The notes under the pieces: generated by a model | What the model was told of the DNA's origin: nothing | The model's database searches: none | The model's input: only the letters and a program-made list of their open reading frames with translations | Program-made: the position numbers and the translations under genes | In this document: positions 2,451-33,027 of the stretch, piece after piece | Layout of the letters: every line of letters starts with the position of its first letter | Numbering within the stretch: the stretch's first letter is position 1 | From: Nitrospinales bacterium | GTDB lineage: Bacteria; Nitrospinota_A; UBA7883; JACRGQ01 | Direction of reading: 5' to 3' | NCBI GenBank assembly: GCA_023248495.1 | Contig: JAHFEK010000005.1 | Location: forward strand, 6,560-70,559 | Length of the DNA: 64,000 bases

Positions 2451-2655
2451 GATGTTCTCCTTGCCTTTCCGGTTATTTTGCCCTCCTTGGGCATCTTCAG
2501 GGCCGGTAGCGCTCCCTTGAACGAGACTATCCTCCGGTTCATTCTACACCGCGCCGTCATCAAGAAAGGGATACCGGGAAAACCGGAGGCAGACCGGGGT
2601 TGACCTTTCCCCCGCTTTACGTTACTTTTGCGTTTGGCTCAAAAAGGAGACATCA

Positions 2656-4174: not shown

Positions 4175-4303
4175 TTACTGATACATCTAACCAAATATTC
4201 AACCCTACTGAGCAAGGTTTTTTTTTCCGACTAGGGAAGGTGCAGCGATTTCCTCGTTAAAATAAGAATCCCGTCAAACCGATTTGCAGAGATTTAGAGC
4301 CAG

Positions 4304-5050: not shown

Positions 5051-5066
5051 TTAATCCAACCTTCCA

Positions 5067-5843
5067 TTATGGTCGAAAAATTGTCTCACGATGGTACCTT
5101 ATCGCAACTTTATCCGGTGAAAACTTCTTCGGCAAATTTACCATTATTCCCTCTATTTCTATTAATCCAATTCGATGGAGGGGTTGCGGTAATGCGGTTT
5201 TTAATTGGCTTGAAACCAAAATTTTAAAGGAATTATCGATAGCAATGTAACCTCGATCAAATGCACGGTCATGTAGTGCACAAAGAGAAATTCCATTTGT
5301 TGGGTCTGCCCTTCGATCGACCTTTTGACTCCAAGGGATAATATGACTTGCTATCAATAGCTCTCTGATTGGAAGCTGACAGAGAGCGCACTGTGAGCCA
5401 TAAGAAGCGAGAACAGTTTCTCTAAAAAAACTTTGAACTAATCGAACCTTTACTGAACGAACTTCCTCCGTTCTTAATGACAAACTATCTAAATTTACGT
5501 CTGGTAGCGATTTCTGGTCTGATTCCTTTCCAGTTATTGCTAAAAAGGCTTTCTGGCTTTCAAATGCAAGCCTACTCCAATCGGAATTGAATTCATCCCA
5601 TATTTTAAGGTCTTCTTTGCTCGCGTTGGCAAGTCCTTTAATGTTTCGTGCTTTTTGGACAGGATCCAAACTGGCAAAATTTACCAACTTCATTGCAATT
5701 GAGCTGGGTGTTCGGCCAAGTTTTAAAGCCAAAAATTTAATATCCGGATTTGCTTTGTGAAGACGACCAAAAGGCGTTCGACAGTAAAGATTGAATGCCA
5801 CGATTAATTCATCGTGGCTCCATCTTATTCTTTCATTCGTCAT
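5067..5843 (-). CDS. HNH-family endonuclease with uncharacterised N-terminal domain (restriction-type nuclease)
   Basis: C-terminal CALCQL...ASHIIPWS...NGISLCALHDRAFDRGYI matches the HNH (Cys/His..N..H) motif. Intact 258-aa ORF in the AT-rich island. Confidence 0.65.
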   Translation of the reverse strand: MTNERIRWSHDELIVAFNLYCRTPFGRLHKANPDIKFLALKLGRTPSSIAMKLVNFASLDPVQKARNIKGLANASKEDLKIWDEFNSDWSRLAFESQKAFLAITGKESDQKSLPDVNLDSLSLRTEEVRSVKVRLVQSFFRETVLASYGSQCALCQLPIRELLIASHIIPWSQKVDRRADPTNGISLCALHDRAFDRGYIAIDNSFKILVSSQLKTALPQPLHRIGLIEIEGIMVNLPKKFSPDKVAIRYHRETIFRP

Positions 5844-5899
5844 TGGTTTTGAAAAACTCTCGAGATGATTTGATGACCAAAGTCCAACACTCCAAATAG

Positions 5900-6642
5900 C
5901 TATCGGAGAACTACTAATCCATCAGCTTCAACTTTTTTTGCCCATGAGTTATTCCTCATAAAAACGGTTCCATAAACCCTAAGTACCCCTGAAATATGGA
6001 CGTTAATTAATATGGCGGTACAAGAAATCCCAACATCCCCAGCAAGGTTTTCGTCCATTAGCAAAAAGGTTGTTTCCTCAGCACAGTCATAGTAAATATC
6101 ACTTGCATCTTCAATAGTTTTAAAATCTTTAATAAACCGTCTAAAAATCAATTTGCCCTTCCAAATATTTTTTATTGCGCTTTTTAGATTATCGAGAACG
6201 GCTGGCAGGGAAAACCGGCCAACAGCACATCATGGTCAGGAATAAGCTGAATAGGCACTTTTGTTATATCGCCCACAATGGGATGATCATCATTAAAGTT
6301 TGCCCGGTAAGTTTCATTTGCCCGCTCATCCCATTCGCTGGTAAAGAGGCAATCCCCGCCTTGGGACTCGAAACCCAACCGAAAACCACCTATCCCGGCA
6401 AAAAGGTCTATAAAGGTGAAATCTCCTTGCGGCTTAAAAGCGGATAAATTAAGCGGCAAAAGAAGCTGTTGAAGCAACCGCCGGGCATAAGGCGGGGGAA
6501 TACATTCCCCAATTTCCCACCGCTGGATGGTTCTTGCATCCACCCCAAAATAATTAGCGACCTCTTTCTGTGAATAGATGGCATTCACTTCCAAGAGAAG
6601 ATTACCAAAAGAAACTCTCTTATTCATCTTCATCGCCCCCAC
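5900..6642 (-). pseudogene. DNA (cytosine-5)-methyltransferase with N-terminal HTH (M.SsoII-like architecture), disrupted by stop and frameshift
   Basis: ORF 6184..6642 has an XRE-like HTH, then motif I FIDLFAGIGGFRLGFE and motif IV GFPCQPFS, and stops. The downstream frame (5900..6151, TTG start) continues with an ENV-like block (LLMDENLAG). My frame walking finds two stops and a +1 shift between the pieces. Confidence 0.65.
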
Positions 6643-6774
6643 AATCCAGGAATATATACGGACAATATGGCAGAAATAGCTCCCTTATTCAACGACCAAG
6701 ATGACTGACTTTCAATGGCCCTTTCAAAGATGGACTTATTCCTTTCAGCCATTTACATATTGCTTACCTACCGA

Positions 6775-8646: not shown

Positions 8647-9544
8647 AGACCTTTATGCCGCCAGCGCGGGTGACGGTGAACGAGCGCACCGTGGCGAAGC
8701 GGGCCGAGTAGTCCTCGCCATCTACCTGCAACGGAACCGCATCGATAAAGGCAAGGGTGAGCGGCGGTTCATGTGTCGCCGCCAAAGGGGCGAGGGCGGG
8801 AATGAAGCGGCTGGCCGCCATTCGCAGGAATGCCCCGTTGCCGGGCAGCTTCATCAGCTCTATTGCGCCATCATCCGGCTTTCCCCCGGCGCCAAAGCGC
8901 GAGCCCCCTCCATACCACGCGAGGTTGCCGATAATCACCGAAAGCGGCGTACCGTCCGCCATCGGCGCGCGTTTGGCGTGGAATAATAAAGCCCACAGGC
9001 CGACCAGGCCGAACAGCATTTTCTTTGCGAAGGCAAAACCGAAAAATCCGGTTTGTTCCAAATATTTGAGGGCCGATTGATAGAGCGAGAGCACCCAGCC
9101 GTCAAAGCCGAAGCTGACGTAATTGGTAAACAACAGCTCGCCATTGAGCGCCCACACATCCACCATCCCGAATGATGGCGCGACGGCGATTTTTTGCAAG
9201 TGGGTAATCACGCTTTTCTGGCGCGGCCCCAATTGCCGCGCAAAATCGTTGCCGGTGCCAAGCGGGAAAACCGCCAGCGCCGTCTCCGGCGCGTGGCGCA
9301 CAATCAGGTCGGCCATCTGATGCACCGTGCCGTCGCCCCCGCAGACCAGCGCGATATCGCACCCCTTGAGCGCCTCTATAACGGCGGGGATGGCGGCGGG
9401 GGAAGCGGGTGTGGCGCATATCGCCGTTACGCGGTTTTTCAGCAACGGATCGCGCGCGCGCGCGTCCGTCAGCATCCGCTGTATACGCGACCCTTTGCCG
9501 TGGCCCGATTTGGGATTGATAAAAATGCCTATCCGATTTTCCAC
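8639..9544 (-). CDS. soluble diacylglycerol/lipid kinase, DAGK_cat family (DgkB/YegS-like)
   Basis: IFINPKSGHGKG...CGGDGT...GTGNDFAR motifs. 8-nt overlap with the downstream LtaS-like gene. Confidence 0.75.
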   Translation of the reverse strand: MENRIGIFINPKSGHGKGSRIQRMLTDARARDPLLKNRVTAICATPASPAAIPAVIEALKGCDIALVCGGDGTVHQMADLIVRHAPETALAVFPLGTGNDFARQLGPRQKSVITHLQKIAVAPSFGMVDVWALNGELLFTNYVSFGFDGWVLSLYQSALKYLEQTGFFGFAFAKKMLFGLVGLWALLFHAKRAPMADGTPLSVIIGNLAWYGGGSRFGAGGKPDDGAIELMKLPGNGAFLRMAASRFIPALAPLAATHEPPLTLAFIDAVPLQVDGEDYSARFATVRSFTVTRAGGIKVCA

Positions 9545-9630
9545 GCTTTAAACTTTAACGCGAATTTGAAAGTTTCGGCAGCAATTTGTTACCTGCGGTG
9601 CCGGGGGGAAAATGATGGATTTGGGCCCGG

Positions 9631-10329
9631 ATGGCGTGTAGAGTACCGGGGAATATGATGCCGAATCCCAGCGATATTTACACCAAACCGCGCCTTGAGA
9701 TGGTGGAACAACAGTTGGTGCGCCGCGGCATCCGCGATGAACGGGTGCTTGCCGCGATGCGGCGGATACCGCGCCATGCCTTCGTTGACGAAGCGCTCTG
9801 TTTTAAGGCGTACGAAGATTACCCCCTGCCCATAGGCGAGAAGCAAACGATCAGCCAGCCGTTCATGGTCGCGGTTATGACCGAAATGCTGGAACTCAAA
9901 GGGAACGAAAAAATATTGGAGATCGGTACCGGGTGCGGCTATCAGACCGCCGTTTTGAGTTTGGTGGCGGCGCAGGTATACTCGATTGAACGGATTGGGC
10001 CGCTGCTGTTCAAAGCGCGGAAAACGCTTGAAGCACTCGGTATCCACAACGTTGCACTCACCGTCGGCGACGGCACCTTGGGGTGGAAGGACTTTGCCCC
10101 GTACGATGCAATTTTGGTCGCGGCGGGGGGGCCGGAGGTTCCGAAACCGTTGTTGGAACAGCTTGCTATCGGGGGACGGATAATCATCCCCATCGGCGGC
10201 GAAACGGGGCAGGTGCTTAAAAGGGTTATGCGGACGCCGTACGGTTTCGAGGAAACGGCCAGCACCCCCTGCACCTTCGTGAAACTGGTTGGACAATACG
10301 GCTGGCAGGAAAATGGGAACATAGGATGA
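9631..10329 (+). CDS. pcm: protein-L-isoaspartate O-methyltransferase
   Basis: TISQPFMVAVMTE...ILEIGTGCGYQTAVL motifs. 232 aa. Confidence 0.92.
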   Translation: MACRVPGNMMPNPSDIYTKPRLEMVEQQLVRRGIRDERVLAAMRRIPRHAFVDEALCFKAYEDYPLPIGEKQTISQPFMVAVMTEMLELKGNEKILEIGTGCGYQTAVLSLVAAQVYSIERIGPLLFKARKTLEALGIHNVALTVGDGTLGWKDFAPYDAILVAAGGPEVPKPLLEQLAIGGRIIIPIGGETGQVLKRVMRTPYGFEETASTPCTFVKLVGQYGWQENGNIG

Positions 10330-11390: not shown

Positions 11391-11479
11391 TGGTGCCGGG
11401 AGCCGGAATCGAACCGGCACAGGCGTTTCCACCCGAGGGATTTTAAGTCCCTTGCGTCTACCAATTTCGCCATCCCGGC
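11391..11479 (-). tRNA. tRNA-Leu (anticodon TAA), 89 nt, long variable arm
   Basis: Reverse complement GCCGGGATGGCGAAATTGGTAGACGCA-AGGGA-CTTAAAA-TCCCT-long arm-GCCGGTTCGATTCCGGC-TCCCGGCACCA. Confidence 0.85.
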
Positions 11480-22645: not shown

Positions 22646-22721
22646 GGGCGAATAGCTCAGTTGGTAGAGCGCCAGCTTTACACGCTGGATGCCACAGGTT
22701 CGAGCCCTGTTTCGCCCACCA
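22646..22721 (+). tRNA. tRNA-Val (anticodon TAC), 76 nt
   Basis: GGGCGAATAGCTCAGTTGGTAGAGCG-CCAGC-TTTACAC-GCTGG-ATGCC-ACAGGTTCGAGCCCTGT-TTCGCCCACCA. Confidence 0.88.
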
Positions 22722-22769: not shown

Positions 22770-23618
22770 ATGGTGAAACAGCCTAAACCTTCCCGACCTA
22801 CCCACCGCCAAAAAACGTATTCAAAAAAGTTTAATCTTTTGCGGCCCGGCACAGGCATCCGCTTCATTCCACCGGAACACTGGGGGCGATCCAGAAAGAG
22901 CATGGGCGGACCATTGCGGCTGGCGATGCTCATGCTGCTGTTGGGGATAACCGCCGAGCTTTATCTCAATCTCCCGGCGCCCCCTCCGGTGCGGCGCGCG
23001 GCTCCCGTTCGCATCACACCTCCGCCGCGCATCATGCAGGAAGAAACGGTAATGGCGAATGCCGTGCCGGCCATCGTCGGGGTGACGCCGGCGCAACCGG
23101 CGCCCACGCCGGCAAATCCGGTTGCTCCGCCGGAAACAGCGGGAACCTCCGCAATTAAACAGGCGGCCTCCACTCGAACGGGGCCACGCATCCGGTTCGG
23201 CATTTTTCTTTCGCGTGAAAACGCCGAACGTCATGTGCAATCATTGGCGAATAAAGGGGTGGTCGCCGCCGCCGAGACGGCATTGCGCCCTCTATCCTCT
23301 TTCACGCTTAAGGCTGGCCCGGCAAACAACGCCGCCAACTGGAAAGATATAAAATCCGCCGGGGCAAAATTAAAGGTTGCGCCGATGGTGGAAGTTGACG
23401 GAAAATATGTAGTTGTAGGGCCCATTTGGTTGAAAGACCGCGCCTTGGTGGCGGAGAATAGTTTTAGGGCCGCCGGTGTCCGTACGGAGATAGTGGAAGA
23501 GCACAAGGATCGCGAAGTATTTAAGGTTCTTTCCGCTCAGTTTGAAACGGTGGAGGCGGCCAAGCGGGCGATTGGGGAAATGCAAGCCAACGGCATTGAG
23601 GGTGTAATCGATGAGTGA
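22770..23618 (+). CDS. SPOR-domain (peptidoglycan-binding, cell-division associated) membrane protein
   Basis: N-terminal TM ([14 protein letters not shown]), Pro/Ala-rich linker, two SPOR-like repeats ([20 protein letters not shown]; [20 protein letters not shown]). The true start may be internal. Confidence 0.6.
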
Positions 23619-23982
23619 AACCGCCGAAGGGAAAAATCCGCAACTGGCGCTCAATCTGCCGGATAAGATGTTCTACAAGATAAGCGATGTCGCCTCCTTG
23701 GCCGGTATCGAAACCCATGTGCTCAGGTATTGGGAAACCGAGTTTCCCGAGTTGACCCCGCGCAAAAGCCAAAGCGGACGCCGCCTCTACAGCCGGCAGG
23801 ACATCGAACTGGTGCTGGAAATTAAATCGTTGCTGTACGACGAGGGATTTTCCATCGCCGGAGCGAAAAAGCGGCTGCAAAAAAGAAAGAAGACCGCCAG
23901 CGAGCAGGATGCCATCATCGAGGCGGTGCGCCAAACTAAAAAAGGGCTGGCGGACATTCTAAGCATCCTCAACGCCGGTTGA
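23611..23982 (+). CDS. MerR-family transcriptional regulator
   Basis: [26 protein letters not shown] is a MerR HTH signature. The likely start is the internal Met at ~23668. Confidence 0.7.
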
Positions 23983-24112: not shown

Positions 24113-25009
24113 CTACTTCTTGAAGCCCACGGCGAAGAGATTGCCGGCGGGGAGAGGAATCGGGATATGGCCGATACCTGTTGCCTTCAACAACGCGATC
24201 AGTTGCGCCTTGGCGGGCAGCGGCAGCAGCTTTATCCAGTAGTGCGCCGGGTAGGTGTTGACCACCGCGCGCACGTCGATCTCTTTGAATCCCGCCCCTT
24301 CCAGCAAACGGGCGACGCCGCGCGGCGAAAAAAGCTGGAGGTGCTCGATATCGAAAATGGGGGATTTCATGCCCAGCAGTTTCGCGGAAAACGCGCGGTG
24401 GTTGTGGCTGGCGATGGCAAAGGCGCCGCCCGGCTTTAACAAGCGGAATGCCGCGTCGCAGACGGCGGCGGGATCCGTCAGGTGTTCCACCGTTTGAAAA
24501 CAGGTAACGAGCGAAAAACTTCCCGGTTGAAAGGCCGATTCATAAAAAATTCCTTTGTGGATGAGCGGGCGAATGTTCTCCTTCGCCGCTTGTATCGGCG
24601 CGTCCGATGGCTCCACCCCGGCCACCCCGGTAAAACCGTTTTCAAGGAGCCGTTCTAAAAACGCGCCATCGCCCGTGCCGATATCCAACGCGCCCGCCCG
24701 GTCCGGCAGCCGGCGCGCCGCGCGCAATACATGCGCGATGTACGTGTCCGCCGCATGCGCGGCCTCTTCGCCGCTGTCGAATGCGGCCGATTCGTAGGCG
24801 TCGGCAAGCGCGCCAGCCTCCGGGACGGGGGTGGCGTAGAGCAGGTCGCAGGCATCGCAGCGGACAAGCCGCAGATGCATCTGCTCGGGTGTTTTGCGCG
24901 AAGCGTAGGCGAAGGCATCAAGCTTGGCGGCGTCGTAATTCGCCTCGGCAAAAAGGTTTGCCGTGCAGTCGGCGCCGCATACGGGACAGTGCCTCTCGCG
25001 CATTTGCAC
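24113..25009 (-). CDS. class I SAM-dependent methyltransferase with N-terminal Cys4 zinc ribbon
   Basis: CPVCGADC...CDACDLLY, then the SAM motif LDIGTGDGAFLERL. Last gene of the minus-strand glycan cluster. Confidence 0.7.
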   Translation of the reverse strand: MQMRERHCPVCGADCTANLFAEANYDAAKLDAFAYASRKTPEQMHLRLVRCDACDLLYATPVPEAGALADAYESAAFDSGEEAAHAADTYIAHVLRAARRLPDRAGALDIGTGDGAFLERLLENGFTGVAGVEPSDAPIQAAKENIRPLIHKGIFYESAFQPGSFSLVTCFQTVEHLTDPAAVCDAAFRLLKPGGAFAIASHNHRAFSAKLLGMKSPIFDIEHLQLFSPRGVARLLEGAGFKEIDVRAVVNTYPAHYWIKLLPLPAKAQLIALLKATGIGHIPIPLPAGNLFAVGFKK

Positions 25010-25014
25010 AGATG

Positions 25015-26991
25015 CTACTCCCGGCCCCGGGCCTGCGTTTCAGAGGCTTGGCGCACCTCGCCGTTCATCACGATGTTCCGCCGGATGAAGCGGGGCCGCT
25101 GCTTTACCTCTTCGAATATTTTGGCGATGTATTCACCCAAAATACTGAGAGCGAGGAGGTTTATCGAACCAAAAAAAACCACCGTTAAAATCATGGTGGT
25201 GGCGCCCTTGGGGGCGATATCGGGAAAAATCAGTTTAAGCGCCACTTCCACAATAGCGAGCAGAACGGATACGCCGAAAAGCGCCCAGCCGAAAAAGCTT
25301 AGCATGTTCAACGGCGTGTTGCTGAAGGAGAGTATCCCTTTTTTGGCCCAATCGATATTCTTAAGCAGGCTGTTGGTGGAAATGCCGAACATCCTCTCCG
25401 GGCGGACGTATGGGATGCCGGTCTGGCGGAACCCGGCGTAGGCCCGTATGCCGCGCATGAAGGCGTCGCGTTCGGGAAAACGGACAAGCGCCTTGACCAC
25501 CTTTTTATCCAGCAGCGAAAAATCCCCCGCGTCGTGCGGGATGTTCAGGTACGAGAACCAATCGAACACACGATAGAAGAGCTTGTAGGCGAACTGCATG
25601 TAAAGCGGCGCTTCGCGCTTCACCCGCACGCCGTACACCACCTCATACCCCTCTTTCCACTTTCCCATGAACTGCTCGATGATTTCGGGCGGATCCTGCA
25701 GATCGCCGTCCATCAGCACACAGCCGTTTTTCGTGGCGATTTCCATGCCGCTGCGGAAGGCCGCCTGCGAACCGAAATTGCGGGAATGGGTGATGCCGAT
25801 GACGTGCCGGTCACGCGCGCTGATGGCGCGGATGACCTCTTCGCTGTTATCGGGGCTGTTATCGTTGACGAAGATAATTTCATAATCGACATTGAGGGAT
25901 GTGAACACCTTCACCAGCCGTTCGTACATAATGGGGATCGCCTGGCCGTCCTTGTAACAGGCGACGATGGCGGAAATACTGTAAACGGTATCCACTCCCT
26001 GCTGCTTGGACGAGCGGCGGTACTTTTCAGGATCTTTAAGCCCCTTGTACCATGCCACGGTTTTCAGCAGGCCGTCGCGCAGGTTGGTGCTGGCGGCCCA
26101 CCCGATCAGCCGTTTGGCCTTGGCCGGATCGGCGTACCATTCCTGAACGTCCCACGCGCGGTTTTGCATTTCAAATTTCGGCTTTTCGGCGATGCCAAAA
26201 AGGTCGTGCGCCTCCGCGGCCAAATCGGAGATTTTTGTCCTCACGCCGCCGCCGATGTTAAACGACTCGCCCCAATTTTCCTCCCGCAAATTAAGCGCCG
26301 CGCTGATGAACGCTTCGCAGGCATCGTCAACATATACAAAATCGCGCGATATCTCGGGGTTGACCAGCGGCGGATATTTTCCCGCCAGCCCTTGGGCGAT
26401 CAATGACGGGATGAGCCGCGCGGCGTCTTCGTAAGGGCCGTAGATGGAATAGAGCCGCAAATTGGCGCAGGGGAAACGGAGTTTTTTGCCGTAGTAGTGC
26501 AACATTCCCGCCACCGCCATCTTGCTTACGGCATAGTGGCTGTTCGGCGCCAACTGCGCGTCTTCGGCCGGGCCGGAGGCGTTATCACCGTATTCTGACG
26601 AACTTCCCGCGTGTATGTAGCGCACCGCGCCGTGTTTCCGCAGCTCTTCCAGCAGCTTTACGGTGTAATTGACGTTGGTGCGGTAAATGAGGTCGAAATC
26701 GGTTTCGAATGAATAGGCGCCGTACGCCACGCAATCGAATACGGTGCGGGGGCGCACGGTCTCGACGAGTGTTTTTATATTGGTATCGACCAGCAGATCA
26801 GTGACGAGCACATTCTGCTCCGGCACCCCCTCCAACCGCCACGCCCACTGTTGTGTTTTGGTGCCGTGCACGTCGGCGCGAACCTCCAGCAGTATTCGAA
26901 AAAGATTCGCCCCCACGAAACCGCTGGCCCCCAGAACGAGTACCGGTCCCTGCAACCGTTCAATTTTGGCCTTCAGCTCCGGATTCATCAT
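25015..26991 (-). CDS. fusion protein: N-terminal NAD-dependent SDR epimerase/dehydratase plus C-terminal GT2 polyprenyl-phosphate glycosyltransferase (DPM synthase/ArnC/GtrB-like) with C-terminal TM hairpins
   Basis: N-terminal GASGFVGANL Rossmann and YAVSK catalytic dyad. C-terminal GT2 IIFVNDNSPDNS...LMDGDLQDPPE with DxD, then two C-terminal TM helices. 658 aa. Confidence 0.75.
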   Translation of the reverse strand: MMNPELKAKIERLQGPVLVLGASGFVGANLFRILLEVRADVHGTKTQQWAWRLEGVPEQNVLVTDLLVDTNIKTLVETVRPRTVFDCVAYGAYSFETDFDLIYRTNVNYTVKLLEELRKHGAVRYIHAGSSSEYGDNASGPAEDAQLAPNSHYAVSKMAVAGMLHYYGKKLRFPCANLRLYSIYGPYEDAARLIPSLIAQGLAGKYPPLVNPEISRDFVYVDDACEAFISAALNLREENWGESFNIGGGVRTKISDLAAEAHDLFGIAEKPKFEMQNRAWDVQEWYADPAKAKRLIGWAASTNLRDGLLKTVAWYKGLKDPEKYRRSSKQQGVDTVYSISAIVACYKDGQAIPIMYERLVKVFTSLNVDYEIIFVNDNSPDNSEEVIRAISARDRHVIGITHSRNFGSQAAFRSGMEIATKNGCVLMDGDLQDPPEIIEQFMGKWKEGYEVVYGVRVKREAPLYMQFAYKLFYRVFDWFSYLNIPHDAGDFSLLDKKVVKALVRFPERDAFMRGIRAYAGFRQTGIPYVRPERMFGISTNSLLKNIDWAKKGILSFSNTPLNMLSFFGWALFGVSVLLAIVEVALKLIFPDIAPKGATTMILTVVFFGSINLLALSILGEYIAKIFEEVKQRPRFIRRNIVMNGEVRQASETQARGRE

Positions 26992-27898
26992 GCTTGCATT
27001 ATGACGCCGAGAACGGCATCCGCGTCAATCCCGCATTCCTTGCGGTGGAATTGTTGCGAGCCGAGCCGGCCTGAAAGATACCCTTTCGCGTGGAAGTGGC
27101 CGAACCGGGGGGGAATGCCCCCCGCCAACGCCAATACGCGGCTCAATGCTTCTCCCAGCCCGCCGTGGGCAACATGTTCTTCCACCACGTGGAGCGCGCC
27201 GCTTTTTTTCACATCGGCCAGAAATGCGGCAGGCGGGGAATTGTGCTCAAGCGGCAGTTCCGTGACCGCCCAGAGCGCGGGGCGCATTTTTCCATCCATG
27301 GCGGCCAGCTTCCCGATAAAACCGCCGGCGATGGGACCGATAGCGGCGATCACCGGGCCGCTGCCCGAAACTATTTTCCTCCATCCGGCGTAGGGGGGCA
27401 AATCGAATCCCGCCGGTTTTTCGCAACGGCCAAGCCGGAGGTAGCCGGGCAACGGCGAATCGGCCATTTTGTCCACTATCGGGGCGACGTCCGGCCCGAA
27501 CGCCGGGACGTAAGCCCGCATGTGCGGCAGGCAAAGCATCGCGCCGTAATCCTCCAGCGCGTGGTGTGTCGCCCCCATCGAGCCGTAGGCGTAGCCCCCG
27601 CCGTTACCGACGATTTTCACGTTGAGCCGGTGGGAGCAGACATCGTTCCGAATCTGTTCAAACGGGCGGGCATAGGCGAATGGCGCGATGCTGTAGATCC
27701 ATGCGGGCAGCCCTTCGCTGGCCATCCCCGCCGCGACCGATACCATGTTCTGTTCCGCCACACCCGCGTTGATGAAAAGTTCCCCCATCGCATCGCGCAG
27801 CGGTTCCAGGGCCATGAAGCCGAGATCGCCGGTGAGAAAGGCGAACCGGCGGCGATGCGAGAGGGCAACCAGCGCCTGACAAACGGCGTTTCTCATGC
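26988..27898 (-). CDS. transketolase C-terminal (pyrimidine-binding) subunit of a split transketolase
   Basis: FLTGDLGFMALEPLRDAMGELFINAGVAEQNMVSVAAGMA. Start assigned to the internal Met overlapping the upstream stop (ATGA). Confidence 0.8.
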
Positions 27899-28681
27899 GC
27901 GCTCCACCTCGTCCACCGCCAAACGGTACTGCTCTTTCGTCAGCGGAAGGTAGTGCCATTCCATTTTGTCCTCCATAAAGGAGACGCCGTGCCCCTTCAC
28001 GGTCCGCATGATGATCACTTTCGGCAGGCCGCTTTGTTGCGTCACCGCACGGTGCAACTCACGCGGATCGTGCCCGTCAATGCTCAACACCTCGAAGCCG
28101 AAAGCGCGGAACTTATCGCCGAACGGCTCCATGTTCGCCACTTCGCCCGTACGGCCGAACCCCTGCAAATCGTTGCGGTCTATCAAGAGGGTGACGCGGT
28201 GCAGGTTGTGATGCGCGATGAAAAGAGCCGCCTCCCAGTTGGATCCTTCGTTCCACTCGCCGTCGGACATGAGGCAGTAAACCGGCGCGTTATTCTTTTG
28301 CAGATGGCGCGCCATGCCCACCCCCGCCGCGAGGCCGAGGCCATGCCCCAAGCTGCCGGTGGAAAAGCGGATGCCGGGGTGCCAGCCCCCGACGGGATGG
28401 CCGGGGAGATTCGTGTTGTCCTTATGGAATTGAACGAGGTCGTCATCGGAAAGCTGACCGTCCGCCCAGAGCGTGACATAAAGCGCGCCGGCCGAGTGCC
28501 CCTTGGAAAGAATGAAGAGGTCTTCCTTTTCCATCACCTGCATGTGGAGGAAAAGTATCGCGTCAAGCGACGAAAGGTTCCCGCCGATGTGGCCAATGCC
28601 GCTTTCAAGATGCATTTTTAAAAGGCGCAGCTTAGCTTTCTTCAACACTTCATTGAATGCGGAAAAATCAGGGGTCTTCAC
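27893..28681 (-). CDS. transketolase N-terminal (TPP-binding) subunit of a split transketolase
   Basis: GHIGGNLSSLDAILFLH...LSKGHSAGALY...GSLGHGLGLAAGVGMA are TPP-binding motifs. Confidence 0.8.
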   Translation of the reverse strand: MKTPDFSAFNEVLKKAKLRLLKMHLESGIGHIGGNLSSLDAILFLHMQVMEKEDLFILSKGHSAGALYVTLWADGQLSDDDLVQFHKDNTNLPGHPVGGWHPGIRFSTGSLGHGLGLAAGVGMARHLQKNNAPVYCLMSDGEWNEGSNWEAALFIAHHNLHRVTLLIDRNDLQGFGRTGEVANMEPFGDKFRAFGFEVLSIDGHDPRELHRAVTQQSGLPKVIIMRTVKGHGVSFMEDKMEWHYLPLTKEQYRLAVDEVERA

Positions 28682-28800: not shown

Positions 28801-30285
28801 TTAAAATACCATCGTCACTAAAATCCCAAGCGTGTAAAAATCCTTGTCTTCCGCAATGATGGTGTATTGGTTGGGTAAATCGTTAGTATCATAATTCGTG
28901 GTTTTGTCGTATCGCATATAGAGCGAAACGTCATAAAGGCCAAAACGGCTTTGCGGCTCCACCACGATAAAATCGCGCACCATTTGCAAAGGCGACTCGT
29001 CAAGGTGCGGTGACTTGGGATCTTCGTAACGGCCGATTTGGTATTTGAGCCGCGTCTGGCCGCTGAAGCGATGCATGTGGCTGTAGACCAACGTGCGGCT
29101 GTTGGTTCCCGTGATCCCCCCCATGGAAACACCTTGGTACGCATACCCTTCGTAGGGATATTGACTATGCAGATAAAATCCGTAGCATATCCGCTGATAT
29201 TCCAAGCGGAAAAAGTCATCCTCGAACGCCAACGTCATCCCCGACATGTTTGAAGGCTGGCCGAAGTAGAAAAAAGATTCCCTTTGCACCCCGCTGGGGG
29301 TATCTGTGAAAAACGTGGCCACGTCCCCCGCCGCCTCTTCATCATAAAGGGTAAACGACTTAACCGACGGGAAAAGCATATCGAGCGGAAGCCGGAGCGT
29401 CGCGTCAAATGAAAGAATTCCATCGTTGTTATATTTGCCCGACACATGTTCGCCGAATCCGCTTATCAATTGAAGATACTCGTTCGTTTGGTACTGGGGC
29501 CGGCCAGCGCCCCCATAATGGGTGATCTTTGTGCCGCCCAATTCCAGCCAGCTGGCCGGGGAATAGGTCATGCGCATGGCAAACACATTCGAATTCGACG
29601 GATCCTGCTGCTTGTTCCATAGCAGCCAGCCGTTCATTAATGTGATATCCCATTTCCCCAGAAAATCGAGCGGCTCTTCAGTGGCAAGCTTTATCAGCGG
29701 GTAGGGCTCGGCATTGGTGGAAAGAAGCAAACCGCCGTATTCACCGGATCCCAGGGCAACATTATCTTTTCCGGCCTCGATGGCCCATTTGCCCAAACGA
29801 TATTTTGCGTAGGCGCGGAATATTTGGCTCTGCTTGAGTTGCTCCGTCTCAATTTGTTTGAACTGGTAGTAAAAGGCGAAGCTGTCGCTGTAGGCGGCGT
29901 AGCCGTCCTCAAAAAGAAAAAGATTCGCCCCTTTGTAGTAGACAAGCCCGGACGAACCCGGAATGACCGCTTTTTCCTCATTGCCGGCAAAAAATTTGCC
30001 CGTGATGCTGGAAAGCGGCTTGAGGTTCCACACCCCATCATTACTGACAACGCAACCGGAATCGGCGCTATCAAGCCCGGACTTTTCCAGGCGGTAGCAA
30101 CTGGTGGGGGATACGCCCCAGCCAGAAGTCATCTTATCCGAGACAATGCCAAGAGAGTCGTAAAAGGCCGAATTTTCTGGGTTGATGTTCAAAATATCCG
30201 CCGCTCCGGCGGCGGCAGGGAACAAAAGCGTTGCCAGCGCCACATACAATGCACCCAACCGAGATATCATAGCTGTGAATTCCAT
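28801..30285 (-). CDS. secreted protein, probable outer-membrane beta-barrel (hypothetical)
   Basis: Signal peptide ending AAGAA|D. Alternating-hydrophobic strands. C-terminal ...LGILVTMVF with terminal Phe (OMP signature). No family recognised. Confidence 0.5.
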   Translation of the reverse strand: MEFTAMISRLGALYVALATLLFPAAAGAADILNINPENSAFYDSLGIVSDKMTSGWGVSPTSCYRLEKSGLDSADSGCVVSNDGVWNLKPLSSITGKFFAGNEEKAVIPGSSGLVYYKGANLFLFEDGYAAYSDSFAFYYQFKQIETEQLKQSQIFRAYAKYRLGKWAIEAGKDNVALGSGEYGGLLLSTNAEPYPLIKLATEEPLDFLGKWDITLMNGWLLWNKQQDPSNSNVFAMRMTYSPASWLELGGTKITHYGGAGRPQYQTNEYLQLISGFGEHVSGKYNNDGILSFDATLRLPLDMLFPSVKSFTLYDEEAAGDVATFFTDTPSGVQRESFFYFGQPSNMSGMTLAFEDDFFRLEYQRICYGFYLHSQYPYEGYAYQGVSMGGITGTNSRTLVYSHMHRFSGQTRLKYQIGRYEDPKSPHLDESPLQMVRDFIVVEPQSRFGLYDVSLYMRYDKTTNYDTNDLPNQYTIIAEDKDFYTLGILVTMVF

Positions 30286-30425: not shown

Positions 30426-31655
30426 TTACCCTTCCTGGGAAAGTGAACCGATGGCGACGCCCCGGCGGCCTTCCCAAAAGAACCTGACCGCCTCTTTCCA
30501 CGCCCAGATGCAGAGCCAGACCGCGCCTATGGTTTTTACATGCCATTGGTTGGCGAACTGCCTCCCCGGCCGCGGCGTTAAATCCGAAAAAATTATGGAA
30601 ACAAGGAACCATCCTATCAACAGGAATGCCATCTGGGTTTTAAACCCCGCCTCGTCCCCTTCGCTCCGGGCGGAAAGGGCGGCATGGAGCATAAACGTGA
30701 ATATGGGAACCAGCATAACGTAGGTGGGGCTTTCCGCCCGCTTATTGAAAAGAATCATAAACGTTAAAGCCAGCGGCACAATCAGCCGGACGAATTGCCC
30801 CCTATCCTGGCGGAAAACCATGAACGCCGCGGCCGCGATGAGCGCCGCGTTCAAAAGCAGGAAACCGAAAAACGCTTGATTGCTTAAAATGATTCCGTAG
30901 TGTTGCAGCGTGGGATGCAGGCCCAAATACATGGTATGCACCCGTTCCATGGAATGCAGTTCTATAAGCGTTTGGAAGCATTCAATCAGCAGGGATGACG
31001 ACATGACCAATAGCGGCAACAGGGAAAGGCCCGCGAGGAAAAGAACGAATGACGCGATGAAAACCGCGTTGAACTCCAACATCAGCAGCAGCGCCATCGG
31101 AAGCGGTATGATTTTCAGCCCCACCCCCAAAGCCAAAATAAAACCGGAAACCGCATACCGGCCCCGGAAGTACATGGCCGTTCCCAACAGGATAAGGCCG
31201 GTGATAAGGCTGTTAATCTGCAAGTTGGTAAGACTGCCCATCATCTCGTTAGTCATCAGAAGCAGGGCGAAAAAATACCACCACCCGCGGAAAAGTTTCC
31301 GTTTCCCGTCTATTTCACGCCATACGGCATGAATGCCGGCCATAAGCACGAGCATGTTCAGCACGCACCATACATAGGATCCTGCCTGTGGCCCCAAGGC
31401 GAGCGTGGAAAACGGATAAAAAAACAGCGCGAAGAGCGGCGGCCACAAAAACCAAGTGCCGAAAGGAGGCTCCGCCGTCTTCCAGTTTTCCGGATAGGGG
31501 TTGCTATGGTTTTGAATGATGGAGATAACGCCGCCGTTGTATCCCAGATAGTTGTTGTGTATCCCCATCGCCGGCGAGATGGCCAATAACATGAAAAAAA
31601 GAACGAAGAGAACCGCCACTTTCCCTTCGAATTCTAGTTTTCGCCAGTAGTTCAT
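30426..31655 (-). CDS. DUF2029/GT87-like polytopic membrane glycosyltransferase (GT-C fold), paralogue A
   Basis: ~10 TM helices. First extracytoplasmic loop has ..NPYP...PP...F. Paralogous to the adjacent gene (shared blocks FVLFF, FFxPFSTxxLGP, YxWxxLN, KLxPLxMALLL). Confidence 0.6.
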   Translation of the reverse strand: MNYWRKLEFEGKVAVLFVLFFMLLAISPAMGIHNNYLGYNGGVISIIQNHSNPYPENWKTAEPPFGTWFLWPPLFALFFYPFSTLALGPQAGSYVWCVLNMLVLMAGIHAVWREIDGKRKLFRGWWYFFALLLMTNEMMGSLTNLQINSLITGLILLGTAMYFRGRYAVSGFILALGVGLKIIPLPMALLLMLEFNAVFIASFVLFLAGLSLLPLLVMSSSLLIECFQTLIELHSMERVHTMYLGLHPTLQHYGIILSNQAFFGFLLLNAALIAAAAFMVFRQDRGQFVRLIVPLALTFMILFNKRAESPTYVMLVPIFTFMLHAALSARSEGDEAGFKTQMAFLLIGWFLVSIIFSDLTPRPGRQFANQWHVKTIGAVWLCIWAWKEAVRFFWEGRRGVAIGSLSQEG

Positions 31656-31788: not shown

Positions 31789-33027
31789 TTATCGAGCGGG
31801 GCCGGCCACTGGAATTACCGTTCCTTCCGCCTGCATTTTGTCGCTGAAATGCATCACGATCCGCGCCCATGCCCACAGATACAGGAGAATTGCCCCCAGC
31901 GTTTTAAAATGCCAGACCTCCGCCGTCACGCGAAAGATAGGGGACGAAAAAGCGCTGTAACCCCACCAGATGAACATCCATCCGGCGACGATGAATAGGG
32001 CGTTGGCGCGGAATCCGTTCTCATCCCCATCTTCGCGGGAACGCAACGCGGCGTGCAACATGAAAACAAACACCGGCGCGAGGGTTATGAAACTCTGACT
32101 CTCCGCCCGCCGGTTGAACAGGACGGCGAAACCCAACAGTGTCGGCACAATGAGCCGCAGGTACTCGCCGCGATCCTTCTTTAGAAGATGGAACGATGCC
32201 AGCGCCAACGCCCCGGCATTGGCCAAGGCGAAAAAAACAAATTCGGCGGGATGAACATGGAAACCATAATGCAGCAGGGTCGGCTCCAAACCGAGAAAGG
32301 CGGCGCGCAACGGCTCGTTTGCTAAAATATCAAACCAGCTTGCCAACATCGAGCTGTAGGCGGCGCTTCCCATGATGGGTATAGGAAGGAGGAAAAGAAG
32401 GGCGGCAATAACGGCGAAGCCAAAGACAAAAACCAAACCAAGATCAAGGCCGAGGAGCAACGCCATCGCCAATGGAAATAACTTGAAATTTGCCCCCATC
32501 GCCAGCAGCAGGGCGGCCCCTGCCTTGCGCCCCCGCATGTAAAGACCCGCTCCCAACATCATCATGCCGGTAATAAGCCCATTATTATGCGCATTCATCA
32601 CCGCGCCCGGCATTTCACTGGCCAGCAGAAATAGCGCGAAAAGGAACCACTTTCCCCGCAACAGCTTCTGTTCCCTGTCGACAAGACTGAATATAGACCA
32701 AACCCCCGCCATAAACATCGCGAAATTCAGCATCACCCAGGCATAAGCGCCGATATCCGGCCCTAGCCCGTGGTGGGTGGAAAAAGGGGAAAAAAAGTAC
32801 GCAAAGGTTGGACTGCACAGGAATTGCGCCAAAGGGGGAGGTTCGGAATCTTGCCCATTAATTGAAGTGTAGGGATTCATCCCTATTATGACGGCGCGCG
32901 TGCCAACGTCATATACCTGATACACCTTGCGCCGATCGCCCACCAGAAAAAACGCGGCCACGGCGAAGAAAAGGACAAAGATCGCCGCCGCCTTCCGCTC
33001 AAAAGAAAGCCTTCGTATGTAGTTCAT
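31789..33027 (-). CDS. DUF2029/GT87-like polytopic membrane glycosyltransferase (GT-C fold), paralogue B
   Basis: YDVGTRAVIIGMNPYT...EPPPLAQFL loop motif. Same architecture as paralogue A. Confidence 0.6.
   Translation of the reverse strand: MNYIRRLSFERKAAAIFVLFFAVAAFFLVGDRRKVYQVYDVGTRAVIIGMNPYTSINGQDSEPPPLAQFLCSPTFAYFFSPFSTHHGLGPDIGAYAWVMLNFAMFMAGVWSIFSLVDREQKLLRGKWFLFALFLLASEMPGAVMNAHNNGLITGMMMLGAGLYMRGRKAGAALLLAMGANFKLFPLAMALLLGLDLGLVFVFGFAVIAALLFLLPIPIMGSAAYSSMLASWFDILANEPLRAAFLGLEPTLLHYGFHVHPAEFVFFALANAGALALASFHLLKKDRGEYLRLIVPTLLGFAVLFNRRAESQSFITLAPVFVFMLHAALRSREDGDENGFRANALFIVAGWMFIWWGYSAFSSPIFRVTAEVWHFKTLGAILLYLWAWARIVMHFSDKMQAEGTVIPVAGPAR

Follow-up and report, generated by a model that had tools for sequence, protein, structure and literature searches.

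An SDR-GT2 fusion enzyme at the hub of a transketolase/methyltransferase cassette, with a probable role in loading a modified sugar onto a lipid carrier for GT-C enzymes

Analysis of a 64,000-nucleotide stretch of DNA from a Nitrospinales bacterium (contig JAHFEK010000005.1; hereafter, the window) revealed a gene for a genuine, selected, bifunctional inner-membrane enzyme in which an extended-SDR domain is fused to a GtrB-type GT2 glycosyltransferase. The fusion forms the core of a conserved and translationally coupled cassette, which also comprises a split transketolase-like (TK) enzyme and SAM methyltransferases. We consider it probable that this bifunctional enzyme acts as the hub of a pathway in which a modified sugar is placed on a lipid and passed to GT-C enzymes. 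The genes and domains concerned, with the evidence for each, are as follows.

24113..25003 (-): Zn-ribbon SAM methyltransferase, 296 aa (Pfam Methyltransf_23; in 54/80 loci)
25015..26991 (-): SDR-GT2 fusion gene (ORF, Pfam and NCBIfam domains, homologues, AlphaFold2 model)
26044..26991 (-): extended-SDR domain, aa 1-316 (Pfam; alignment without gaps to BcUGAepi 6ZL6 and to Rmd 2PK3; high-pLDDT Rossmann fold)
25993..26043 (-): interdomain linker, aa 317-333 (conserved residues; short helix 321-326 in the AlphaFold2 model)
25402..25992 (-): GT-A catalytic domain, predicted GtrB-type, aa 334-530 (alignment to GtrB 5EKP, residue invariance)
25018..25401 (-): juxtamembrane helix, TM1, TM2, R533, K624 and C-terminal beta-hairpin (AlphaFold2, hydropathy, GtrB alignment)
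26988..27896 (-): TK-C, comprising the Pyr and C domains; 302 aa when started at M22 of the mechanical ORF (Pfam Transket_pyr; start from family alignment and public gene call)
27893..28615 (-): TK-N (ThDP-binding), 240 aa (Pfam Transketolase_N; 6YAK alignment; public gene call)
28801..30285 (-): Wzi-like outer-membrane capsule-assembly protein (Pfam Caps_assemb_Wzi, E=5e-29)
30426..31655 (-): GT87-like GT-C glycosyltransferase (a) (Pfam GT87, E=4e-19; 9 TM-like segments)
31789..33027 (-): GT87-like GT-C glycosyltransferase (b) (Pfam GT87, E=5.5e-11)

Architecture and authenticity of the fusion

The fusion gene is a 658-aa ORF with an ATG start and no interruption. The extended SDR (aa 1-316) is joined by a linker of about 17 aa (317-333) to the GtrB-type GT (aa 334-658). 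Pfam analysis of the protein detected Epimerase PF01370 (aa 17-247, E=8.6e-44), GDP_Man_Dehyd (aa 18-308), and Glycos_transf_2 PF00535 (aa 340-501, E=6.4e-22), and the E-values of its Pfam and NCBIfam matches are far outside chance. An AlphaFold2 model was obtained with a pLDDT of 80.5 and a pTM of 0.64, the inter-domain geometry being uncertain. A Foldseek search of the PDB with this model returned single-domain matches only and did not discriminate the SDR subfamily.

Both Pfam domains were present in 120 of the 120 best database homologues (649 to 699 aa), and the same uninterrupted fusion protein was encoded in all 80 genomic loci, which come from different species. The public gene call on this contig, accessed via the identical database entry P0001, is the same uninterrupted fusion. 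The linker is conserved in both length and sequence across the family, with Y324, S328, K329, and the adjoining D334 near-invariant. These results rule out a frameshift or lost stop joining two genes, which the earlier note had named as the outcome that would refute it. A sequencing or assembly artefact retains next to no probability, as the 120 matches derive from independent assemblies and are accompanied by the 80 species genomes, the public call, and the conserved linker.

The fusion is encoded in at least 264 species-representative genomes, which span about 10 phyla; neighbouring genes were examined in 80 species loci. More than 25 further full-length representatives were found, down to 29% identity. 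The fusion is therefore common in environmental bacteria; its earlier description as unusual holds in the sense that it is unstudied, a literature search having found no publication that describes the fusion or its cassette, but not in the sense that it is rare.

The SDR and GT2 halves

The SDR half has the Rossmann fold with GxxGxxG (G21-A-S-G24-F-V-G27) and the catalytic Ser/Thr-Tyr-Lys triad (S130, Y153, K157) that characterize the PF01370 superfamily. S130, Y153, and K157 align with T126, Y149, and K153 of BcUGAepi. In some 75 sequences drawn from many phyla, GxSGFxG, GSSSEYG, S130, Y153, and K157 are invariant, and the catalytic residues are likewise kept in stand-alone orthologues. The C-terminal substrate domain is also present, the GDP_Man_Dehyd model reaching aa 308. 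Within the family alignment, D217, R278, and D281 do not vary and R216 hardly does; we take R216, R278, and D281 to be equivalent to R231, R292, and D295 of GalE, the Arg/Asp residues through which enzymes of the GalE type bind the nucleotide diphosphate.

Searches with the SDR half yielded 4-epimerases, dehydratases, and one reductase as the best sequence and structure matches, with similar scores that single out no one reaction; the top sequence matches were the 4-epimerases BcUGAepi (6ZL6), M. tuberculosis GalE1 (7YS8), and MoeE5. The active-site strand reads G-S130-S-S-E-Y-G, with S130-S131-S132-E133 in register. A 4,6-dehydratase identity (RmlB, GMD) would call for an Asp/Glu general acid-base pair just after the catalytic Thr (T-D-E or T-S-E) and was rejected because ungapped alignment with RmlB 6BI4 and with Rmd places a Ser at the Glu position; the TIGR01181 score was 97 against a cutoff of 365. 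The identity of a UDP-GlcA decarboxylase (ArnA C-terminal domain, UXS) was rejected on the missing T-S-E in register, and UXS structures gave only weak matches.

In NAD+-retaining 4-epimerases, beta2 ends in an acidic residue that binds the adenine ribose. The alignment revealed no such acidic residue in the SDR half, which differs in this from the NAD+-retaining GalE-type enzymes. Its beta2 loop, D-V-H-G-T-K-T (consensus DVYGTxS), has the Asp-containing segment of BcUGAepi deleted and matches E-V-F-G-T-S-R of Rmd, an NADPH-dependent ketoreductase. The cofactor loop is thus predicted to be NADP-type and Rmd-like. The atypical loop could also be read as a sign that the SDR half is degenerate and serves as a non-catalytic nucleotide-sugar-binding or regulatory domain on an ordinary GtrB, which is very improbable given that the Gly-rich loop, S130/Y153/K157, and GSSSEYG are invariant and persist in stand-alone orthologues. 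Judged by these alignments, the SDR half is a putative nucleotide-sugar oxidoreductase of the epimerase/4-ketoreductase type.

The GT2 half aligned end to end with GtrB 5EKP (E=3.7e-61, about 33% identity). In GtrB, Asp157 is catalytic, Arg122, Arg200, and Arg290 are acceptor-phosphate residues, and the active site lies about 15 A off the membrane (PMC4728340). D428-G-D430 aligns with the DxD metal and diphosphate site of GtrB (D94-A-D96); R122, D157, and R200 are kept as R456, D490, and R533, and R290 is conservatively replaced by K624. All of these positions (D428xD430, R456, D490, R533, K624) are invariant in the fusion family. AlphaFold2 placed a juxtamembrane helix at 542-554, TM1 at 559-588, TM2 at 597-630, and a beta-hairpin at 637-648, and hydropathy analysis revealed two C-terminal hydrophobic segments (560-578 and 596-614). 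The predicted structure reproduces the GtrB layout, including a GtrB-like C-terminal hairpin. The NCBIfam PgfS and ArnC models cover aa 335-642, i.e., the entire GT including its membrane part. PgfS (NF047588) is the best NCBIfam match of the GT2 half (E=3e-65), with a score of 220.4 against an equivalog cutoff of 500, and ArnC (NF007986) scored 148.7 against 529. The GT2 half thus appears to be a relative, not an orthologue, of ArnC and PgfS, and it is predicted to be a GtrB-type transferase that uses a nucleotide sugar to glycosylate undecaprenyl phosphate on the cytoplasmic side of the membrane. The earlier reading of this gene, a single ORF encoding an extended SDR with GxxGxxG and YxxxK (Y153-A-V-S-K157) followed by a DxD-containing GT2 domain with two C-terminal TM helices, was borne out in each of these features, and its assignment to the GtrB/ArnC-like polyprenyl-phosphate glycosyltransferases agrees with the retention of all GtrB residues whose importance mutagenesis or structure has established.

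Cassette members and genomic neighbours

The genes follow a conserved order: TK-N, TK-C, the fusion, and one or two SAM methyltransferases, in most cases with GT-C enzymes close by. In the window, TK-N and TK-C meet in an ATGA overlap, the TGA of TK-C overlaps the ATG of the fusion in the same way (ATGA), and the ATG of the Zn-ribbon methyltransferase lies 11 nt past the fusion stop. TK-C was found in 71 of the 80 loci, TK-N in 68, and the Zn-ribbon methyltransferase in 54. Linkage to the TK spans 100% to 34% identity and extends to unfused versions. TK-N and TK-C precede the fusion in one case of 38% and one of 34% identity; they come after a stand-alone SDR (55%), and a stand-alone GT2 (54%) has the arrangement GtrA-TKN-TKC-GT2...SDR. 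The SDR and GT2 modules therefore co-occur with the TK and methyltransferases whether fused or not.

TK-N matched the split TK 6YAK (E=5e-52) and keeps the ThDP-binding and catalytic motifs GH, SKGH, GHP, SDGEWNEG...N, and EWH, while TK-C keeps the AEQN Glu and the THH His. Both phosphate-clamping arginines are retained. In the acceptor pocket of TK-C, Ser345 is replaced by Met, His416 by Gly, and Asp424 by Met (human numbering), and these substitutions are conserved in 66 cassette TK-C proteins. With NCBIfam transketolase models the scores were 77 and 211, short of the 488 cutoff. The cassette TK is, as far as these residues indicate, a specialised enzyme with a remodelled acceptor pocket. 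A housekeeping transketolase present by chance is ruled out by the conserved pocket substitutions and by linkage across 34-100% identity.

The Zn-ribbon methyltransferase resembles TcaB9, an NDP-keto-sugar C-methyltransferase of the TcaB9/KijD1 type, in a putative N-terminal four-Cys Zn ribbon and in an FD(x)EH..LFS strand that may be catalytic. The match is weak (E=4e-6), and the alignment ends at aa 255, corresponding to residue 262 of 416 in TcaB9. CxxC...CxxC is present with its second pair aligned, and IFDIEHLQLFS resembles I(Y)DEHFFLFS of TcaB9. The C-methyltransferase Zn domain PF08421 was not detected by Pfam in this protein, even in a relaxed scan, and the nucleotide-sugar-binding C-terminal domain of TcaB9 (about 150 aa) is missing from the 296-aa protein. 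The likeness to TcaB9 hints at a keto-sugar substrate. A membrane-anchored methyltransferase with a C-terminal TM lies directly downstream in 47 of the 80 loci.

Both GT87-like genes belong to the same minus-strand gene string as the fusion. An orthologue of GT87-like (b), 73-77% identical, lies upstream of TK-N in the closest relatives (L001 and L002), and GT87-like (a) is a candidate user of the lipid-linked sugar. PMT_2-like multi-TM genes occur near the cassette in other loci, as a raw neighbour count with no background control. The Wzi-like gene is absent from the other 80 loci and is lineage-specific context outside the conserved core. No dedicated flippase of the GtrA, SMR, or MATE type lies in the operon of the window, near which a search for small 3-4-TM ORFs found nothing, and one may be encoded elsewhere; GtrA-like ORFs were found in 2 of the 80 loci and in the cassette of one unfused relative. 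As a source of a keto-sugar, neither a second SDR nor a nucleotidyltransferase motif was found in the window; among the 80 loci, a second SDR (RmlB/Gmd-like) occurs in only 4 and the nucleotidyltransferase motif in 1. The fused SDR is the sole recurrent redox enzyme of the cassette. A promoter and terminator scan gave results near background and was uninformative.

Proposed pathway, known systems, and rival explanations

Architecture, catalytic residues, conservation, and linkage were observed directly; the substrates, step order, branching chemistry, and final acceptor of the following scheme are what we infer. The cassette probably encodes a GtrA/GtrB/GT-C type of periplasmic glycosylation system; its lipid-linked donor would be derived from a keto-sugar, would probably be C2-branched or C2-extended, and would be methylated. 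The SDR half would create and/or finally reduce a keto group on a nucleotide sugar, the transketolase-like enzyme would attach a hydroxyacetyl (two-carbon) group at this carbonyl, the methyltransferase or methyltransferases would methylate the sugar, and the GT2 half would transfer the finished sugar to the lipid carrier. After a flip, a GT-C enzyme (two GT87-like proteins here, PMT_2-like proteins elsewhere) would deliver it to an envelope glycan or a protein. More tentatively, and at low confidence, the product may be a new lipid-linked donor with a TK-made C2 branch or extension on a keto-sugar that the fused SDR generates or resolves, C- or O-methylated (sulfated in some lineages), and carried on undecaprenyl phosphate to GT-C enzymes. 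In this version, some of the modifying steps might act on the intermediate once it is bound to the lipid.

The Arn pathway resembles this proposal in its 4-keto remodelling, in the loading of undecaprenyl phosphate by the GtrB-like ArnC, whose structures match the GT2 half, and in periplasmic use by a GT-C enzyme. ArnA is a two-domain fusion too, but in the cassette the domain joined to the SDR is the glycosyltransferase. The cassette has no aminotransferase, formyltransferase, or deformylase, and ArnD acts on the lipid-linked sugar. The analogy to ArnA drawn in the earlier note fails at the residue level, as the SDR half has neither the dehydratase D/E nor the decarboxylase T-S-E in register. 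Of the direct channelling suggested there, the loading of a modified sugar onto polyprenyl phosphate stands, but a two-step scheme of epimerisation and transfer ignores the TK and methyltransferase partners. The fused domains of ArnA need not catalyse consecutive steps, and the fusion is therefore no proof of direct channelling.

In yersiniose formation, an NDP-4-keto sugar receives a C2 branch from the ThDP enzyme YerE before the reductase YerF acts; YerE belongs to the decarboxylase superfamily, unlike the transketolase-type enzyme of the cassette. For miharamycin and amipurimycin, an oxidoreductase and a split-gene transketolase have been proposed to achieve hydroxyacetyl branching of a keto-sugar; such branching is unproven in vitro, and the 13 TKs of this kind that are listed are all from Streptomycetes (PMC12247030). 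Compared by description, these pathways share with the cassette a two-gene TK and, on the present proposal, a redox enzyme making a keto-sugar, but they belong to Streptomyces secondary metabolism and their sugar is not lipid-linked. The nearest literature item is an uncharacterised split TK with a methyltransferase in an Actinoplanes Wzx/Wzy cluster. The cassette methyltransferase may have counterparts of the Zn ribbon and E-H strand of TcaB9, the similarity being weak and the C-terminal domain missing here.

Among the glycosylation systems, the Pgf operon of Streptococcus mutans encodes the GT-A enzyme PgfS, the 4-epimerase PgfE, and the GT-C enzymes PgfM1 and PgfM2 for extracytoplasmic glycosylation (PMC12041528). 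It likewise combines a GtrB-type GT, an SDR epimerase, and GT-C enzymes in one operon, but its genes are unfused and accompanied by neither a transketolase-like enzyme nor methyltransferases, and it serves protein targets in a Gram-positive organism. GtrA/GtrB/GtrV O-antigen glucosylation is also close, and Synechocystis GtrB (sll0501; 5EKP, 9NYC) resembles the GT2 half over its full length. GtrB is a stand-alone enzyme using unmodified UDP-glucose, whereas its counterpart here carries an SDR at the N-terminus and is coupled to a ThDP enzyme and methyltransferases. Citrobacter youngae ORF12-15 encode a PRPP-dependent UbiA-type synthase, an SDR epimerase acting on undecaprenyl-phosphate ribofuranose, and a GT-C enzyme (PMC11127046). 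Such pentofuranose systems and the mycobacterial DprE1/E2 system share with the cassette a lipid-P-sugar synthase, an auxiliary SDR epimerase, which in those systems diversifies the donor, and a GT-C enzyme, but the pentofuranose synthase is not a GT2, the epimerase is unfused and acts on the lipid-linked sugar, and no ThDP enzyme is involved.

A simple channelled pair, with the SDR as an ordinary 4-epimerase (e.g., UDP-Glc/UDP-Gal, UDP-GlcNAc/UDP-GalNAc, or UDP-GlcA/UDP-GalA) handing its product to the GT2 half and with the TK and methyltransferases acting elsewhere or later, is an unlikely explanation. It would fit the top SDR sequence matches, the ungapped alignment of the S-S-S strand to epimerase T-S-S, the conserved nucleotide-binding residues R216, R278, and D281, and the known operon of an epimerase and a GtrB-type GT (Pgf; PMC12041528). 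However, the TK is coupled by overlapping stop and start codons, with linkage in about 70 of the 80 loci and in distant and unfused versions, and it is not a bystander housekeeping enzyme because its acceptor pocket is remodelled. Moreover, the beta2 loop is Rmd-like, without an acidic residue, and a plain epimerase offers the TK no carbonyl.

We regard as rather improbable that the GT2 half makes an ordinary undecaprenyl-phosphate sugar on which the SDR, TK, and methyltransferases then act at the membrane, the SDR oxidising or epimerising it in the manner of DprE1/E2 or of ORF13 from the pentofuranose systems. The full substrate domain of the SDR, with R216, R278, and D281, the soluble, stand-alone SDR of unfused cassettes, and the distance of the GtrB active site from the membrane (about 15 A; PMC4728340) speak against modification on the lipid. 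On the other hand, the fusion keeps the SDR at the membrane, the TM-anchored methyltransferase is directly downstream in 47 loci, the Zn-ribbon methyltransferase has no TcaB9-like nucleotide-sugar-binding domain, and the TK keeps the phosphate-clamping arginines while losing the sugar-phosphate-specific Ser, His, and Asp. ArnD is a precedent for such a modification, as is the SDR epimerase known to act on undecaprenyl-phosphate ribofuranose (PMC11127046).

The conserved, horizontally widespread cassette ties a donor synthase to an SDR and a ThDP carboligase-type enzyme whose acceptor pocket is remodelled. Periplasmic glycosylation that uses polyprenyl-phosphate sugars, as in the Gtr, Arn, Pgf, and mycobacterial arabinan systems, influences antigenicity, resistance to antibiotics, and the integrity of the envelope; the donors known for it are, to our knowledge, simple sugars. 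On a conservative reading, the analysis would still improve the annotation of thousands of genes that currently carry the label "NAD-dependent epimerase/dehydratase family protein" or "dolichol-phosphate mannosyltransferase." If the proposal is true, the cassette would be the first tractable system for the sugar branching proposed for split transketolases and may yield new biocatalysts for tertiary alcohols or higher-carbon sugars. It would provide the first demonstrated transketolase-dependent sugar branching, and the first in primary envelope-glycan biosynthesis, spread over Acidobacteriota, Planctomycetota, Cyanobacteria, Geobacteraceae, Nitrospinota, and others, and its product would be an envelope sugar of a new class, made in several phyla that are dominant in the environment.

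Architecture of the fusion and its gene cassette

Analysis of the fusion locus revealed a single ATG-started ORF at 25015-26991 on the minus strand encoding 658 aa, as the earlier note had proposed. The motifs named there were all found (G21xxG24xxG27, Y153xxxK157 and D428xD430), and the two predicted C-terminal TM helices were recovered in an AlphaFold2 model, with hydropathy concurring on both segments. Pfam assigned an NAD-dependent epimerase/dehydratase domain to aa 17-247 (E=8.6e-44; the longer GDP_Man_Dehyd model spans 18-308) and a family-2 glycosyltransferase domain to aa 340-501 (E=6.4e-22). The NCBIfam PgfS and ArnC models cover aa 335-642, corresponding to a complete lipid-phosphate glycosyltransferase including the membrane part. 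The AlphaFold2 model of the fusion (mean pLDDT 80.5, pTM 0.64) showed the organization listed below; no solved structure covering both halves was found among the structural matches.

Domain organization of the fusion (AlphaFold2 model; TM helices also from hydropathy)
aa 1-316, SDR domain
about aa 317-333, linker
aa 334-530, GT-A domain
aa 542-554, juxtamembrane helix
aa 559-588 and 597-630, TM helices
aa 637-648, C-terminal beta-hairpin

The best 120 matches in a collection of 5.8 billion proteins (from NCBI, ENA, JGI and Logan assemblies) were 649 to 699 aa long, with at least 98% query coverage. A frameshift or assembly artefact, the refutation suggested earlier, was ruled out because all 120, from independent sources, carry both Pfam domains. 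The public gene call for an identical database protein (P0001) is likewise 658 aa.

The earlier reading was correct in the architecture of the fusion and missed the conserved cassette around it, which is part of the following gene string in the window.

Gene string containing the cassette
31789-33027, minus strand, GT87-like GT-C
30426-31655, minus strand, GT87-like GT-C
28801-30285, minus strand, Wzi-like outer-membrane capsule-assembly gene
27893-28615, minus strand, transketolase N-half (TK-N), 240 aa
26988-27896, minus strand, transketolase Pyr/C-half (TK-C), 302 aa
25015-26991, minus strand, SDR-GT2 fusion
24113-25003, minus strand, Zn-ribbon SAM methyltransferase

The transketolase (TK) starts were reset on the basis of family alignment and public gene calls, TK-C from 26988-27959 to M22 and TK-N from 27893-28681 to 27893-28615; an apparent 67-bp overlap therefore becomes a 4-bp ATGA overlap. 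ATGA stop-start overlaps join TK-N to TK-C and TK-C to the fusion, and the methyltransferase ATG lies 11 nt after the TAG of the fusion. A convergent MerR-family gene (23611-23982) borders the end of the cassette. In this window only, the interval from the syntenic GT87-like gene to TK-N contains the Wzi-like gene and the second GT87-like gene (30426-31655); in an 89% identical relative (L001), the GT87-like gene is directly upstream of TK-N. The Wzi-like gene beside the cassette is lineage-specific.

Elsewhere in the window, a low-GC patch at 4300-6700 (GC 0.44 versus about 0.58 elsewhere) looks like a decayed, horizontally acquired restriction-modification islet. It contains three minus-strand ORFs: a 190-aa ORF (4304-4876), a 258-aa HNH-type endonuclease-like ORF (5067-5843) and a 152-aa ORF (6184-6642) with HTH and N-terminal C5 DNA methyltransferase motifs (FAGIGG...PCQ) and an early stop, the latter two assigned from reading their translations. 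A tRNA-Val (22646-22721) separates ComEC from a SPOR-domain gene, and further tRNAs, Ser(cga), Arg(gcg) and Leu(taa), lie at 184-361 and 11391-11479.

Conserved residues of the cassette enzymes

The top sequence matches of the SDR half were UDP-GlcA 4-epimerase (6ZL6), Mycobacterium tuberculosis GalE1 (7YS8), dTDP-glucose 4,6-dehydratase (6BI4) and MoeE5. Their significance was similar, and the structural matches were equally mixed. The invariant strand G129-S-S-S-E-Y-G135 aligns ungapped with S-T-S-S-V-Y-G of epimerases and S-T-D-E-V-Y-G of RmlB, and S130 is therefore identified as the catalytic Ser. Dehydratase/decarboxylase acid/base positions are occupied by Ser in this alignment; for this reason UXS-, RmlB- and GMD-type identities were rejected, and the analogy with ArnA drawn in the earlier note does not hold for the SDR half. 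NAD+-retaining epimerases use an acidic residue of the beta2 loop. The corresponding loop of the fusion, D-V-H-G-T-K-T (consensus DVYGTxS), has no acidic residue and aligns ungapped with E-V-F-G-T-S-R of Rmd, an NADPH-dependent GDP-6-deoxy-D-lyxo-4-hexulose reductase (sequence from 2PK3) whose active-site strand reads G-S-S-E-E-Y-G versus G-S-S-S-E-Y-G in the fusion. Of the putative nucleotide-diphosphate ligands, R278 and D281 do not vary and R216 hardly varies; we take R216, R278 and D281 to be equivalent to GalE R231, R292 and D295. From these residues, we conclude that the SDR half would be an NDP-sugar C4-type oxidoreductase, either an epimerase or a ketoreductase, that probably uses NADP(H).

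Over its entire length, the GT2 half aligned with GtrB of Synechocystis (5EKP; E=3.7e-61), with one gap of one residue. The functional residues of GtrB (PMC4728340) were mapped after correction of the 5EKP chain offset (+23), and all their counterparts are invariant across the fusion family.

Functional residues of GtrB and their counterparts in the fusion
D94/D96, metal and diphosphate site, D428/D430
R122, acceptor site, R456
D157, putative catalytic acid, D490
R200, acceptor site, R533
R290, possible initial phosphate site, K624

By sequence, the GT2 half is a predicted GtrB-type polyprenyl-phosphate glycosyltransferase. Its scores fall far short of the ArnC and PgfS equivalog cutoffs, so it is not an orthologue of either.

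Comparison of the TK-N sequence with transketolases revealed retained GH, SKGH, GHP and EWH motifs and the ThDP motif SDGEWNEG...N. In TK-C, the Glu that activates the cofactor (AEQN) is retained, as are the His of THH and the equivalents of the two phosphate-clamp Arg residues. TK-C carries Met, Gly and Met in place of Ser345, His416 and Asp424 (human numbering), giving GNGGGYAYGSMGATHH, a pattern kept in 66 cassette TK-C proteins; the pocket of a more distant cassette version (L081) is similarly remodelled. Both halves score far below curated transketolase cutoffs. The enzyme is, as judged from these features, a predicted specialised transketolase-like enzyme.

The Zn-ribbon methyltransferase showed a weak, motif-level match to TcaB9 (E=4e-6), in which the second CxxC is aligned and the family-invariant IFDIEHLQLFS corresponds to I(Y222)DE224H225FFLFS. 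The cassette enzyme lacks the C-terminal domain of TcaB9, an NDP-4-keto-sugar C-methyltransferase. The Pfam Zn-domain model did not detect it.

Distribution of the fusion and conservation of the cassette

The fusion, previously described as unusual, is not rare: a peptide-pattern scan in which each species was represented by a single genome revealed at least 264 encoding genomes, a lower bound, and 80 loci were kept. Loci from Nitrospinota, the lineage to which the window belongs, are 86 to 89% identical to the window fusion, and full-length identity outside this lineage is mostly 60 to 65%. Groups named from MAG record titles include Geobacteraceae/Desulfuromonadales, Acidobacteriota, Planctomycetota, Armatimonadota, Cyanobacteria (including Nostoc punctiforme NIES-2108), Myxococcota, FCPU426, Firestonebacteria and some Proteobacteria. 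Little or no variation was seen in the catalytic motifs of both halves and at several positions of the linker. In an exhaustive 50%-clustered library, the core family forms one representative, accompanied by more than 25 additional full-length SDR-GT2 representatives down to about 29% identity and by stand-alone relatives (SDR, 55%; GT2, 54%).

TK-C was present in 71 of the 80 loci and TK-N in 68, normally immediately upstream. The Zn-ribbon methyltransferase was found in 54/80. A second SAM methyltransferase (about 276 aa, Methyltransf_23/11), anchored by a C-terminal TM segment, is encoded directly downstream in 47/80 (L003-L080); the window and its nearest relatives lack it. Among redox enzymes, only the fused SDR recurs in the cassette (second SDR, 4/80), and a nucleotidyltransferase-like ORF occurred in 1/80. 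Genes for PMT_2-type GT-C proteins recur in the neighbourhood; of the 54 loci that span 15 kb or more, 50 contained one or more large multi-TM ORFs, a raw count without background control.

Linkage to the transketolase-like genes persists in divergent and in unfused versions. A fusion with 38% identity lies in the order TKN-TKC-sulfotransferase-fusion...DUF4915 together with a pair of proteins, each about 525 aa long, of which one is weakly similar to PMT_2, and a 34% identical fusion in the order TKN-TKC-fusion-MT-MT with a 502-aa protein containing seven TM-like segments. A stand-alone SDR was found as SDR-TKN-TKC-Gfo/Idh/MocA. A stand-alone GT2 belongs to an unfused cassette on the contig of P0155 (JGI 3300067032), in the order GtrA-family flippase, TK-N, TK-C, GT2, two unknown proteins (747 and 786 aa) and stand-alone SDR; three methyltransferase genes precede it. 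All TK-linked SDRs examined share GSSSEYG and a beta2 loop without an acidic residue.

Sulfotransfer_3-like and DUF4915 genes replace the methyltransferases in two distant loci (L081:3098-4033 and 1923-3101; L082:5016-5960 and 8711-9892), which suggests that distant cassettes may produce the same sugar in sulfated instead of methylated form. A type IV pilin-like gene with an N-terminal methylation motif (L084:9559-10104) adjoins the putative GT-C of the 34% identical cassette; this single case hints at pilin as a candidate glycosylation target in that organism.

A small-ORF search found no flippase in the window operon. Close to the cassette in two other loci, reading of sequences identified a GtrA-like 4-TM ORF in N. 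punctiforme NIES-2108 (L022:13105-13479) and an SMR/ArnE-like small membrane ORF (L055:14015-14380). Each family occurred in only 2/80 loci, so any flippase would be encoded elsewhere in most lineages.

Proposed keto-sugar pathway and alternatives

A full-text literature search returned no description of the fusion or cassette; one paper lists an uncharacterised split transketolase and a methyltransferase in an Actinoplanes polysaccharide cluster. In miharamycin/amipurimycin biosynthesis, an oxidoreductase is proposed to make a keto-sugar to which a split-gene transketolase adds a hydroxyacetyl unit, with in vitro proof pending; a recent review that records this proposal names only 13 predicted transketolases of this kind, all from Streptomycetes (PMC12247030). 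The same pairing of oxidoreductase and split transketolase is present in the cassette and, together with the weak TcaB9 similarity, points to a keto-sugar hub. Architecture, residues and linkage are observed; substrates, step order and chemistry are inferred. The SDR half would make and/or resolve a carbonyl, to which the transketolase-like enzyme would add a C2 unit. Methyltransferases, or sulfotransferases in some lineages, would decorate the sugar, the GT2 half would load the product onto undecaprenyl phosphate, and GT-C enzymes would use the lipid-linked sugar outside the cytoplasm.

A plain channel from an epimerase to the GT2 half would agree with the epimerase-like active-site strand but fits neither the cofactor loop nor the near-obligatory transketolase, and we regard it as rather unlikely. 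The fusion by itself does not prove consecutive steps; the two domains of ArnA catalyze non-adjacent ones. Tailoring might instead occur on the lipid-linked sugar, given that the fusion is tethered at the membrane, one methyltransferase is TM-anchored and ORF13/DprE provides a precedent (PMC11127046). However, the SDR half retains nucleotide-binding residues and the stand-alone SDRs are soluble, which makes this order of events still less probable.

Such use of a lipid-linked sugar by GT-C enzymes would parallel the Gtr, Arn and Pgf systems. We classify the cassette as a predicted periplasmic glycosylation system of the three-component kind in which the SDR is fused and a ThDP carboligase module is present.
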